The notes under the pieces: generated by a model
Told to the model about the DNA's origin: nothing
What the model saw: the letters and a program-made list of their open reading frames with translations, nothing else
The model's database searches: none
In this document: positions 50,922 through 55,223 of the stretch, piece after piece
Layout: each line of letters opens with the position of its first letter
Numbering within the stretch: the first letter of the stretch is position 1
From: an uncultured candidatus Porisulfidus sp.
Lineage (GTDB): Bacteria; Pseudomonadota; Gammaproteobacteria; Poriferisulfidales; Poriferisulfidaceae
DNA: 64,000 bases
Assembly (NCBI GenBank): GCA_963668445.1
Contig: OY764335.1
Span: forward strand, 1,022,083 to 1,086,082
Direction of reading: 5' to 3'
Program-made: the position numbers and the translations under genes

Positions 50922-51299
50922 CTATTGCCGCTCCGCCAATGCCAGCAGCATCTTCGGCAGTTGCGGTTCCATTCCCAGATACGGACGCACATTGATCCGA
51001 ACTTCCGGATGGCGCTCACGCGCCTTCGCGACGATCGCCGGAATATCGTCGCGGACATGCTTCCCTGCCGCCAGAAAATACGGCAAGACATCCAATCGCT
51101 CGGCTCCTTGCGCAACGCATGCGTCGATGCCCGCCGGAATGTCGGGTTCCGCAATCTCCAGAAAGGCGTGCGCAATGATCGCGTAACGGTCGCCGGCCTC
51201 CTGCCGCAGGCGCTGCGCCAATCGGGCGACCTCCGCATTGGCATCGGGCAGACGCGAACCATGCGCAACCAGCAGCAAGGCGCACGGGCCGCCGCTCAC
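50922..51299 (-). CDS. Short CbiX/SirB-type (CbiX-S-like) class II chelatase, 125 aa
   Basis: LVAHGSR, AFLEIAEP, LPYFLAAGKHVRDDIP; GTGA overlap with kdsB stop. Confidence 0.85.
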   Translation of the reverse strand: MSGGPCALLLVAHGSRLPDANAEVARLAQRLRQEAGDRYAIIAHAFLEIAEPDIPAGIDACVAQGAERLDVLPYFLAAGKHVRDDIPAIVAKARERHPEVRINVRPYLGMEPQLPKMLLALAERQ

Positions 51300-52024
51300 G
51301 ACTCCGCCTCCGCTGCGGCGCGCACCCGCGCCAAATCTTCCGGCGTATCCACGCCGCCCGGCGTGCCTGCGGCGATCTCCGCCACATGGATGCGGAGCCC
51401 ATGGTGCAGCAGGCGCCACTGCTCCAGGGATTCGCGCTGCTCCAGCGGCGCGGCCGGCAAGCTTGCGTACTGCCTCAGCCCGGCGCCTCGGTACGCATAA
51501 ATGCCCAGATGGCGTCGGCAGTCCTGTTCCGGCACGCCCTGCGGCCGGCGCCCGAAGCCAAGGGCGTAATCGTGTTCGTCGCGCCACACCTTGACGACAT
51601 GAGCGCGGCTCCAGTCGCCTTTCGCGAGCGGCTCGCACAGGGTCGCCGCGAAAGCCTCATGCCGTGCGGCAAGATTGGCCGCCACTTGGGCCATGAGCGC
51701 AGGCGGCAGCAGCGGCTCGTCCGCTTGGACGTTGACCACGACCGCATCCTCGTCCCAGCCGGTACGCTCCACCAGTTCGGCCAGCCGCGCCGTGCCATTC
51801 GGATGGTCGACCCGCGTTCGCCAGACCGGTGCCGCGAACGACCGGGCACAAGCTTCCACATCCGGGTCGCCGGCCGCGATGGCCACGGCCGCGGCGCCGC
51901 TTTCGCGGGCATGCTCATAAACCCATTGCAGCATCGGCCGTCCTGAGATCTCAAGCAACGGCTTGTTCGGCAGACGCGTGGAAGCGCAGCGGGCTGGAAT
52001 CGCCACGTAGAACGGCGCGTTCAT
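51296..52024 (-). CDS. kdsB: CMP-Kdo synthetase
   Basis: [38 protein letters not shown]. Confidence 0.9.
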
Positions 52025-52218
52025 GTGCGCTGGCGGTGCGCCTGGTATTCTTCGTCCGTCAATTCGCGGGCTTCGTCCTCCAGCAGGACGGGAATCTCGT
52101 CGCGAATGGGGTAGGCCAGCCGAGCCGATAGCGACACCAGTTCCTGATGCTCGCGGTCGTAGATCAGCGGGCCTTTGGTCACCGGGCAGACCAGAATGCT
52201 CAATAGTTCAGGTTCCAT
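52021..52218 (-). CDS. ycaR: Trm112/YcaR family protein
   Basis: [25 protein letters not shown]; usual position between lpxK and kdsB. Confidence 0.9.
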
Positions 52219-55036
52219 GCGTGGCTCCGTAAGCGTCGATCGTGCGTCGCAGGCTCTGGACGAGTTGTTCGGAAACCTCACGCGCCAGCACCACTTCGAC
52301 TTCCAAAGAATACCACCGATTGCGGGCGAAGCGTTCGCACTTCACCGCATCCTTAGGCGTCATGACGACGGCATGGCCGTCCTCAAAGTCCACATCCTCC
52401 AGCCGAAAGCGGTAGTGGTCCTCGTACACATGCGGAATGACATCGATGCCGGCCGCGGACAGCGATTCGAGGAAGCGGCGCGGATTGCCGACGCCGCAGA
52501 CGGCGTGCACGGTCTGGCCGGCCAGTTTCTCCAAAGGCTGGGTCGAGCCATCAACGAGGGTGCGCAAGTGCAGCGCCTGCAAATCGAAGCGATGCTCGCC
52601 GGCCTGCGGCAGGCCGCCGTGCACCAGCGTCCAGTCGGCGCGGCGCGCATAGCGCAGCGGCTCGCGCAGCGGCCCGGCAGGCAGGCAGCGCCGGTTGCCG
52701 TAGCGGCGGGCGCCATCCACCACCAGAATCTCCAACTGCCGCGGCAATGCCAGATGCTGCAATCCATCGTCGGCCAACACGATGTCCACGGCATGCGCTG
52801 CGCAAAGCGCCTGCGCCGCCGCCCGCCGCTGCGGTCCGGCGAATACCGGGCACTGCGTTTGGGCCGCCATCATGACGGCCTCCTCCCCGACCTCGTCCGG
52901 GTCCATGCTAGGCGTCACCTCCCGCGGCCAAGCCTCGCTGACCCCCTTGTAGCCCCGGCAAACGATGCCGGGAGCCACGCCATGCGTCTGCAGCTGGCGC
53001 GCCAGCCAGATCACCAGCGGGGTCTTGCCGGTGCCTCCGACGCTCAGATTGCCGACTACCGCCACCGGAACCGGCAGCGGTGAGGCGCGCCACAGCCAGC
53101 GGTACCAGCCGCGCCGCAGCAAGGCGCCGGCGGCGTACAGCCAACCCAGCGGCACCAGCGGCCATAGCCAGCGACCGTCTCTGTACCAGACGAATTCGGC
53201 ATAACGGGTGAAGATGGACTGGTGCACGGTGCGCTCGCCTTCCAGCAGCATGCCGCGGCGTGGAGCGGCCGGCGGAACATCGTCCGGCGGCGCCTGGAAC
53301 TGGTGCCGGTACAGATCGGCGTACGTCTGCCCGTGCGCCAGCAGCTCCTGATGCGTGCCCTGCTCCGTCACTTGACCGCGCTCCATCACCACGATCCGAT
53401 CGGCGCGTTCGACCGTCGACAGGCGGTGCGCAATGATCAAAGTGGTGGAGAAGCTCATCACCTCGTTGAGCGCCTCCTGCACGTAGCGTTCGGAAGTGCT
53501 GTCCAGCGACGAGGTCGCTTCGTCCAGTATCAGGATCGGCGCATGCTTGTAGAGGGCCCGGGCCAAGGCCAGCCGCTGCCGCTGGCCTCCGGACAACTGC
53601 ACGCCGTCCTCGCCAATGACCGTTTCCAGCCCTTGCGGCAGACGGTCGACGAACTCGTCGACATGGGCGCAGCGCAGCGCCCGGTCCAAATCGTGCGTGC
53701 GGTCCGGGCTGACGCCGTACGTAATGTTGTTGCGCACCGTATCGTTGAACAACACCACGTTCTGCCCGACATAGCTGATCATGCCGCGCAAATCGGACAG
53801 CTGCAACTGCTCTACGGGAATGCCATCGATCCGGATTTCGCCGTGGCTCGGCGCATAGAAGCGCGGCAGCAGATTGGCCAGCGTCGATTTGCCCGCGCCC
53901 GAACGGCCGACCAGCGCGACCGTCTCTCCTCTGCGGATGGTCAGCGAAATTTCATGCAGCGCATCGCGCTCGGCATTCTGATAGCGCACGCTGACTCCGT
54001 CGTATTCGATCCGATCCGTCAATTCCTGCTTGGCGACCTCGCCGCGGTCCGCCTCCACCGGCGCATCCAGAAGCTGGAAAACCTGCTGCCCGGCCGCGAT
54101 GCTTTGCTGCAGGCGGGTGTTGACCTGCACCAGATTGCGGGCCGGGCCCAGCAGCATCAGCATGGCGAACATGAACGACACGAAACCGCCGACCGTGATG
54201 GTCTCCAACACGCCTTCCAGCGTCACCAGATAAATGATGGCGGCCCACGCAATGCCCACCATCAGCATGATGACCGAGGAAATCAGGGCTGTGGCCTGCG
54301 CCGTGCGCACCTGCCGGATGCGGTAATGCTCGGTCGTGGCGTCGAAGCGCGTCCGCTCCATCTTCTCGGCCTGGAAGACCTTGACGATGCGGTAGCCCTG
54401 CAGCGCCTCCTGCACATCGCGCACGGTGCCGCTCATCGCTTCCATGGCGCGATGGCTAAGCTTCCGGACGCGCCGGTTCGTACTAGGAATCCACCAGGCG
54501 AAGATGGGCGCGGCCGCCAGAAACGCGACCGTCAGCATCCAGCTGACGTACAGCATCCAGCCGAGCAGGCCCAGCACCGTCAGCGTGTCCCGTACCAAGA
54601 TGGTCAACCCCTTGGAAGCCGCGCCCGCCACGCCCTCGACATGGTTCGTGATGCGGGCCAGCATGTCGGCGGATGCCGTATGGTCGTGCGCTTCGGCCGG
54701 GAAGTCCAGCAGGCGGGCGAACATCTGGCGGCGCAGATCACGGACCAGCCGCGAGCCGATCTGCGCCATGCCGGACGCGCTCAGGTAGGAGCCGATCGAC
54801 CGCAAGGCGAAAATGCCGACCAGCGCCAGCGGCACCCACTCGATGACCTCCGGCTGCTGCGCCACAATGGCACCGTCCAAAATCGGCTTCATCAGGGCCG
54901 ACAAGCCCGGCCCGCTTGCCGCCACCATGACCATGCCCAGAACCGCATAGCCCAAAGTCGCCGCTTGGCCGTCCAAGGCCAGACGCAACAGTTGCCGATA
55001 GATATCGACGCCGGTGCGGTGCGGAACCTGGTTCAT
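52208..55036 (-). CDS. msbA-lpxK: Fused lipid A flippase MsbA (about aa 1-580) and tetraacyldisaccharide 4'-kinase LpxK (about aa 610-942)
   Basis: One 942-aa ORF: [34 protein letters not shown], then [35 protein letters not shown]. Confidence 0.9.
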
Positions 55037-55182
55037 GGCCGGCGCTTACCTTTGCGAGGCTGTGCCGGCATGACTCGCGCCGAGATGAAAAGCCACAGGA
55101 TTCGTGCCATCACCCGTCCCCGGTCTGCGCCGGCACCAACAATTGGCGGCCGGGATTTGAAGCGCAGAAACGGGTTCAACGG

Positions 55183-55194
55183 ACAATATATTGT
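55183..55194. promoter_or_regulatory. Perfect palindrome ACAATATATTGT (NrdR-box-like core) in a divergent intergenic region
   Basis: 12-bp palindrome 29 nt upstream of the DUF2062 ATG. Confidence 0.45.
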
Positions 55195-55223
55195 AGAGTA
55201 TCGCTTTGGCCGGGAGATATTCC

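Follow-up and report, generated by a model that had tools for sequence, protein, structure and literature searches.

MsbA, the flippase that moves the lipid A-core as a homodimer, and LpxK, the lipid A 4'-kinase, are both essential proteins and both antibiotic targets. In a 64,000-nucleotide stretch of DNA from an uncultured candidatus Porisulfidus sp. (assembly GCA_963668445.1, contig OY764335.1, positions 1,022,083 to 1,086,082 of the forward strand; hereafter the window), the two are encoded one after the other in a single reading frame, which raises the question of whether such a fusion is real, whether both halves look able to work, how it came about and what the tether might mean for lipid A biogenesis. 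The answer that we consider probable is a bifunctional inner-membrane MsbA-LpxK protein that would have been born by the loss of a stop codon and in which each half would keep its ordinary job.

A Single Uninterrupted Gene Spans MsbA and LpxK

The gene occupies positions 52208-55036 of the window on the minus strand, where the listing of open reading frames (ORFs) gives a single ORF with an ATG start, 942 amino acids (aa) and zero internal stops; the continuous frame of 942 codons described in an earlier note on this DNA is therefore present from ATG to stop. Its parts, in window coordinates, are as follows.

52208..55036, minus strand: the msbA-lpxK fusion, 942 codons and a stop codon, with Pfam and NCBIfam matches to both families
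53294..54961, minus strand: MsbA module (residues 26-581), a six-helix transmembrane domain followed by a nucleotide-binding domain (NBD), delimited by TIGR02203 and a structural model from AlphaFold2 (AF2)
53216..53293, minus strand: linker of ~26 residues (582-607), with a variable first half, APPDDVPPA, predicted to be disordered, and a genus-conserved second half, RRGxLLExxxTxHQ
53249..53251, minus strand: internal ATG, encoding Met596, within the linker
53096..53215, minus strand: N-terminal helices of LpxK (residues 608-647; AF2 helices 608-618 and 622-647), Trp-rich and amphipathic, a likely membrane-interface anchor
52211..53095, minus strand: LpxK kinase core (residues 648-942), from PF02606 and the alignment to PDB entry 4EHX
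52883..52885, minus strand: codon of Glu718, at the position of Asp99 of Aquifex LpxK in the alignment to 4EHX

All 16 of the 16 genomes available to us from the genus carry the fusion without interruption, at 69-75% identity, which excludes an assembly error: the MsbA-LpxK fusion is genuine, and the scenario raised in the earlier note, in which the relatives would all have split genes, does not apply. This gene encodes the sole LpxK domain of a 99.5% complete genome, which also encodes WaaA, KdsB and an acyltransferase of the LpxL type. A 754-aa open frame around WaaA was considered as a second fusion and rejected as an artefact of high guanine-plus-cytosine content.

The arrangement departs from that of Escherichia coli, where ycaI, msbA, lpxK and ycaQ are separate, co-transcribed genes (PMC10328246, PMC3001078). 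MsbA of E. coli (582 aa) is thus a protein distinct from LpxK (328 aa), whereas the window gene has neither a stop nor a restart between the two, and ~22 additional residues (585-606) span from where MsbA usually ends to where LpxK usually begins.

Both Halves Look Functional

Over residues 26-581 the protein scores 641.3 bits against the MsbA_lipidA model TIGR02203 (NCBIfam; equivalog cut-off 602), and Pfam places ABC_membrane at residues 30-298 and ABC_tran at 360-509; the score against the enterobacterial MsbA model NF008381 is 519, below that model's own cut-off of 867, as expected of a distant lineage. The ATP-binding cassette (ABC) motifs, which the earlier note had called intact, are so (Walker A G377-T385, Q425, signature L481-R488, Walker B D505/E506 and H537) and are moreover invariant across 102 fused homologues. 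The AF2 model of the full-length protein has a mean predicted local distance difference test (pLDDT) score of 88 and a predicted template modelling score (pTM) of 0.60, at which the relative placement of the domains is not confidently predicted. Its best Foldseek matches are the MsbA structures of P. aeruginosa, A. baumannii and E. coli, with TM scores of 0.88-0.93 over ~575 columns, so that the fold is the same as that of E. coli MsbA, and the MsbA half is 37-40% identical to the solved MsbA structures. Residues R79, R149 and R300 align with R78, R148 and K299 of E. coli MsbA, which we take to be the basic residues contacting the phosphates of lipid A, and R79 is invariant in the 102 fused homologues. 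By these features the MsbA half looks functional, and flipping activity is predicted for it.

For the second half, Pfam LpxK (PF02606) covers residues 624-929 with 319.5 bits (cut-off 27), the NCBIfam lpxK equivalog TIGR00682 scores 227 bits (cut-off 92), and residues 627-921 align with Aquifex aeolicus LpxK (PDB 4EHX). In Aquifex numbering, the key residues of LpxK comprise K51/T52 of the P-loop, the Mg ligand E100 and the Walker B pair D138/D139, with R72, R119 and H143 binding the lipid and His261 acting as the proton acceptor, with Asp99 as its hydrogen-bond partner (PMC6286764). K51/T52, R72, E100, R119, D138/D139, H143 and H261 correspond here to K671/T672 (within the P-loop G667-T672), R694, E719, R737, D756/D757, H761 and H874, all of them conserved, and the match to the Aquifex structures (PDB 4EHX, 4ITL and 4LKV) extends from these catalytic and lipid-binding residues to the N-terminal amphipathic helix. 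The claim that all LpxK motifs are intact stands for the residues listed, with a single exception: the equivalent of Aquifex Asp99 is Glu718.

A Glu at this position is found in all members of the clade of the window protein (P0001-P0021) and in 3 other fused proteins, and an Asp in the other 84 fused homologues. As the substitution is common to the entire clade and keeps the carboxylate, we treat Glu718 as a probable lineage trait and not as a defect; D99E appears to be the mildest of the Asp99 mutant series, as we read the 'same trend' wording of a review (PMC6286764).

The Trp-rich segment ahead of the kinase core is matched in the alignment to the helix at the N terminus of Aquifex LpxK and is of moderate hydrophobicity, residues 621-639 having a Kyte-Doolittle value of 0.83, below the transmembrane range. 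The N-terminal amphipathic helix of LpxK is required both for activity and for membrane association, and the lipid site is oriented toward the same side as this helix (PMC6286764). Apart from Glu718, what sets the window kinase apart from Aquifex LpxK is that its N terminus is tied to an ABC transporter rather than free. Overall, the LpxK half looks functional, and 4'-kinase activity is expected from a genome that holds this LpxK as its only one together with WaaA, LpxL and KdsB.

The Linker Stays in Frame and the Spacer Has an Apparent Minimum Length

The stop-free linker that had been noted is present at residues 581-606 (~53216-53298). Within the genus it is less conserved than its surroundings: pairwise identity averages 0.61-0.63 in the linker, 0.76 in the kinase core and 0.82-0.83 in the MsbA domains. 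Linker length (19-22 residues in the genus) varies in the first half only and always by whole codons, and R594, G595 and T603 are invariant; this pattern of an in-frame linker with conserved residues and whole-codon insertions and deletions is unexpected for an untranslated spacer. The internal ATG was likewise reported correctly as having no evident Shine-Dalgarno sequence: none resembling one was found upstream of the Met596 codon. Nor is Met596 itself conserved, its place being taken by E, V, K, H, S or Q in other species of the genus, and a search of the linker across 15 genus members found no conserved ATG, GTG or TTG with a Shine-Dalgarno sequence.

AF2 predicts two modules with confidence and a disordered stretch between them. 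When the whole protein is modelled, pLDDT falls below 50 at residues 582-590 only, whereas residues 576-607 are all predicted to be disordered when MsbA is omitted. The contrast gives a weak hint that the conserved half of the linker may pack on MsbA, weak because the alignment used without MsbA was shallow (12 sequences, vs. 102 for the full-length run).

We took as the spacer the residues that separate two conserved anchor positions, L575 and W617 or their equivalents; by this measure it is 41 residues long in the window protein. Where the genes are separate, the MsbA tail extends past the first anchor by a median of 9 residues and LpxK begins a median of 10 residues before the second. The spacer measures 36-57 residues in the 102 fused relatives apart from one with 79 (median 42), and 30-58 (median 36) in 10 fused species that were sampled independently, while the would-be spacer of 12 in-frame split pairs is 21-42 (median 28). 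Of these last two sets, the fused spacers are the longer (one-sided Mann-Whitney p = 0.004), and among the ~112 fused proteins measured none has a spacer below 30 residues. Such a minimum fits a tether that would let the amphipathic helix of LpxK reach the membrane.

The Fusion Is Widespread but Apparently Unstudied

The earlier note had suspected that the fusion might be rare, a suspicion that the databases overturn. In a search of 5.8 billion proteins, in which the LpxK part alone was scored and only proteins of fused length were admitted, 1,434 clusters matched; among the 120 clusters listed, nearly all have the architecture ABC_membrane, ABC_tran and LpxK over 920-1000 aa, and those that bear a name at all are called just 'MsbA' or 'tetraacyldisaccharide 4'-kinase'. 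A profile search with the LpxK part against 1.84 billion representatives returned 14,534 homologues at E <= 1e-10, with 5 of the 150 nearest being fused. A motif scan keyed on generic Walker motifs retrieved mostly unfused ABC exporters, the truly fused loci among them being only L013 and L017.

To place these numbers in a taxonomic frame, 400 species representatives spread evenly over Gammaproteobacteria were sampled. The uninterrupted fusion occurs in 12 of them (~3%), 2 from the window genus and 10 from ~9 other families, and ~38 more (~10%) have msbA and lpxK in a common frame, kept apart by one or two stops (e.g., G334, G204, G184 and G017). One family, f89, holds both states, with the genes fused in G315 and one stop apart in G125. 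In other families of the window species' own order the genes are separate and adjacent, three of these pairs being in one frame with a single TGA between. Genome streamlining was considered as the cause and set aside as an insufficient explanation, since fused genomes span 0.9-3.9 Mb.

The fusions of SAR86, Pseudomonadales and other uncultured Gammaproteobacteria share the ABC_membrane, ABC_tran, LpxK order, the length of ~920-1000 aa and a similar spacer with the window protein. Relative to those of SAR86 and Pseudomonadales, the window fusion has a separate origin (see below), an unrelated linker sequence and a Glu where those have the equivalent of Asp99.

Two database entries call for separate comment. 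The fused locus L109 (G315:C1:2208250-2211350) contains N bases, read as X within the linker and the P-loop of the kinase, that simple scripts could mistake for stops. A 706-aa protein, P0024, joins LpxK to a KdsB-type cytidylyltransferase (PF02606, PF12804 and PF02348), a fusion that presumably arose from the same gene neighborhood.

No account of a natural MsbA-LpxK fusion came up in a literature search that did not reach ~1.7 million PMC articles or most subscription journals, and the PDB has no entry spanning both the MsbA and the LpxK modules. The architecture is abundant in public databases and apparently unstudied.

The Fusion Arose at Least Three Times

The number of origins was assessed on a concatenated MsbA+LpxK alignment of 930 columns, with the linker columns dropped, comprising 51 fused and 18 split rows, each split row an msbA/lpxK pair from one genome. 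In the resulting tree the window clade (100/100) is sister to the split genes of family f2 from its own order (100/99). The fused clade of Pseudomonadales and SAR86 groups instead with the split genes of Halomonadaceae and Halieaceae, beyond a 100/100 branch from the window clade, and two more fused lineages are separate. Four changes are needed on this tree, three of them forced by strongly supported branches, and the approximately unbiased (AU) test rejects a single fused clade on these data with a log-likelihood difference (delta-lnL) of 168.5 and p far below 0.05. By the concatenated tree and the AU test, then, the fusion of the window genus is an event of its own, and at least three origins are indicated overall.

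Trees built from LpxK only say less. A quick one had suggested at least four origins, a result that we withdrew when the AU test found a better-scoring tree with all fusions together. In a careful LpxK-only analysis, a much better free tree requires 9-10 changes and 0 bootstrap trees contain a single fused clade; a single fused clade is not rejected by the AU test on these data (p = 0.10).

As to the route, loci L093 and L095 of a sister family have the TGA of msbA followed, two codons on and in the same frame, by the GTG of lpxK, and one point mutation would fuse pairs of this type. Because in-frame pairs with one or two stops between them are common, sister families included, stop loss would be the obvious route to the fusion. 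The earlier note had argued from a designed-looking linker against a single lost stop. That argument loses ground to the ~10% of species that are one or two stops away from fusion and to the variable, disordered first half of the linker; what survives of it is that fused spacers are longer than those of most in-frame split pairs.

Gene Neighborhood

Three further features flank the fusion gene.

52021..52218, minus strand: ycaR (Trm112-like, 65 aa), with PF03966 and NF008806 matching from residue 22 of the listed ORF
51296..52024, minus strand: kdsB, encoding CMP-Kdo synthetase (Kdo, 3-deoxy-D-manno-octulosonate), TIGR00466 185 bits, cut-off 155
55037..55205, no strand: divergent intergenic region of 169 bp upstream of the fusion gene, read from the sequence

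The last 11 nt of the fusion gene (52208-52218) already belong to ycaR, from its ATG on, and 4 nt at the ycaR stop are shared with kdsB (52021-52024); this chain of overlaps suggests that msbA-lpxK, ycaR and kdsB may be translationally coupled along it. A 65-aa ycaR orthologue also follows the fusion gene in the relative L105. The order msbA, lpxK, ycaR, kdsB is common to the window and to E. coli, where ycaI-msbA-lpxK-ycaQ is followed by ycaR-kdsB, the difference being that no ycaQ stands between lpxK and ycaR in the window.

On the 5' side, a weak AGGT lies 11 nt ahead of the ATG of the fusion gene, and a search of 55037..55205 for a sigma-70 consensus found no match. In the congener L105 (3010-4004), the fusion gene is immediately preceded by exbB-exbD, its start overlapped by the exbD stop. 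The window species has no exbB-exbD at this place, where the 169-bp gap is followed by a divergent gene of the DUF2062 family; ExbB-type genes are present elsewhere in its genome.

Discussion

These data support a model where an ancestor of the genus would have lost the stop codon between adjacent, co-oriented and co-transcribed msbA and lpxK genes, joining the cytoplasmic C terminus of a complete MsbA half-transporter to a complete LpxK through a partly flexible linker of ~26 residues. Such a fusion would be tolerated because both of the joined termini are cytoplasmic and because LpxK would be anchored by an amphipathic helix that lies at the membrane interface rather than by a membrane-spanning one. 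Since MsbA is a homodimer, each transporter would carry two LpxK units, and the two kinases per flippase proposed in the earlier note follow from this known dimer. LpxK would most likely make lipid IVA at the cytoplasmic leaflet, with MsbA later flipping the finished Kdo2-lipid A/core, and the presence of WaaA, LpxL and KdsB points to the ordinary pathway running between the two activities. The same three genes contradict the export of a minimally decorated lipid A, which had also been put forward. The spacer would be kept at or above ~30 residues for the kinase to reach the membrane from the far end of the NBD. What the cell would gain is a fixed 1:1 expression and co-localisation of the two enzymes, and this benefit is argued to be small, as ~97% of the sampled species are unfused and many of them are one stop away.

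Some points weigh against this explanation. The product of ~104 kDa is predicted from the gene, and cleavage may occur in the disordered linker. Mild as D99E appears to be among the Asp99 mutants, Glu718 still alters a residue that is important for catalysis. The fused and split spacer distributions overlap between 30 and 42 residues, and the tether geometry proposed here draws on the spacer lengths and the general dimensions of MsbA rather than on model coordinates.

The arrangement could instead reflect a functional coupling, in which the tether would set LpxK at a defined spot on MsbA and the partnership would exist also where the genes are separate, whether as a complex for lipid A assembly and export, as a checkpoint for the 4'-phosphate or as a kinase linked to the ATPase cycle. 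Independent fixation on at least three occasions, a spacer maintained at 30 residues or more, the genus-invariant R594, G595 and T603 and a second linker half that is ordered in the full-length AF2 model and disordered without MsbA would all agree with it, as would a published discussion of LpxK as a second site of pathway control (PMC6286764). We nevertheless hold such coupling to be rather unlikely: the genes for WaaA and for late acylation, steps that act between LpxK and MsbA, are present; the sampled species that keep the genes apart, those near fusing included, argue for an advantage that is weak or lineage-specific; linker sequences are unrelated between fused clades; and differing alignment depths confound the AF2 comparison, in a model whose pTM is just 0.60. 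The boldest version, a 'Rosetta stone' reading under which MsbA and LpxK would form a physical and regulatory unit across Gram-negative bacteria, with RRGxLLExxxTxHQ here docking on the MsbA NBD and linking the ATPase cycle to how the kinase reaches its membrane substrate, strikes us as a long shot; were it true, the flux of lipid A synthesis would be matched to export capacity. A role in a metabolon or in quality control is speculation.

It is also conceivable that one gene yields two proteins, LpxK being released mostly as a separate enzyme by internal initiation or by proteolysis of the linker, the first half of which is disordered, rich in Pro and acidic residues and accessible to proteases. 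The window species does offer Met596 as an internal ATG, but this codon is unique to it and the 15 genus members share no linker start codon with a Shine-Dalgarno sequence, and the conserved residues and whole-codon length changes of the in-frame linker speak for continuous translation, so that we regard two separate products as very improbable. To a sequencing or assembly error that erased a stop or a frameshift between two genes we give next to no credence: it has only the general possibility of such errors in its favor, and the same frame recurs in the 16 independently assembled genus genomes and in dozens of cluster members derived from metagenomes.

Under stop loss with both halves keeping their ordinary jobs, the picture of lipid A biogenesis is unchanged by the fusion, which taken alone is a modest finding. 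It does support a particular topology for LpxK, with a cytoplasmic N terminus and an interfacial rather than membrane-spanning helix, as the N terminus of LpxK is necessarily cytoplasmic in the fusion and the helix then fits an interfacial anchor. The natural fusion would also be a ready construct for structural work on the placement of LpxK relative to the flippase. Finally, it offers a clean evolutionary case, in which adjacent genes fuse recurrently and do so with a minimum length of tether.

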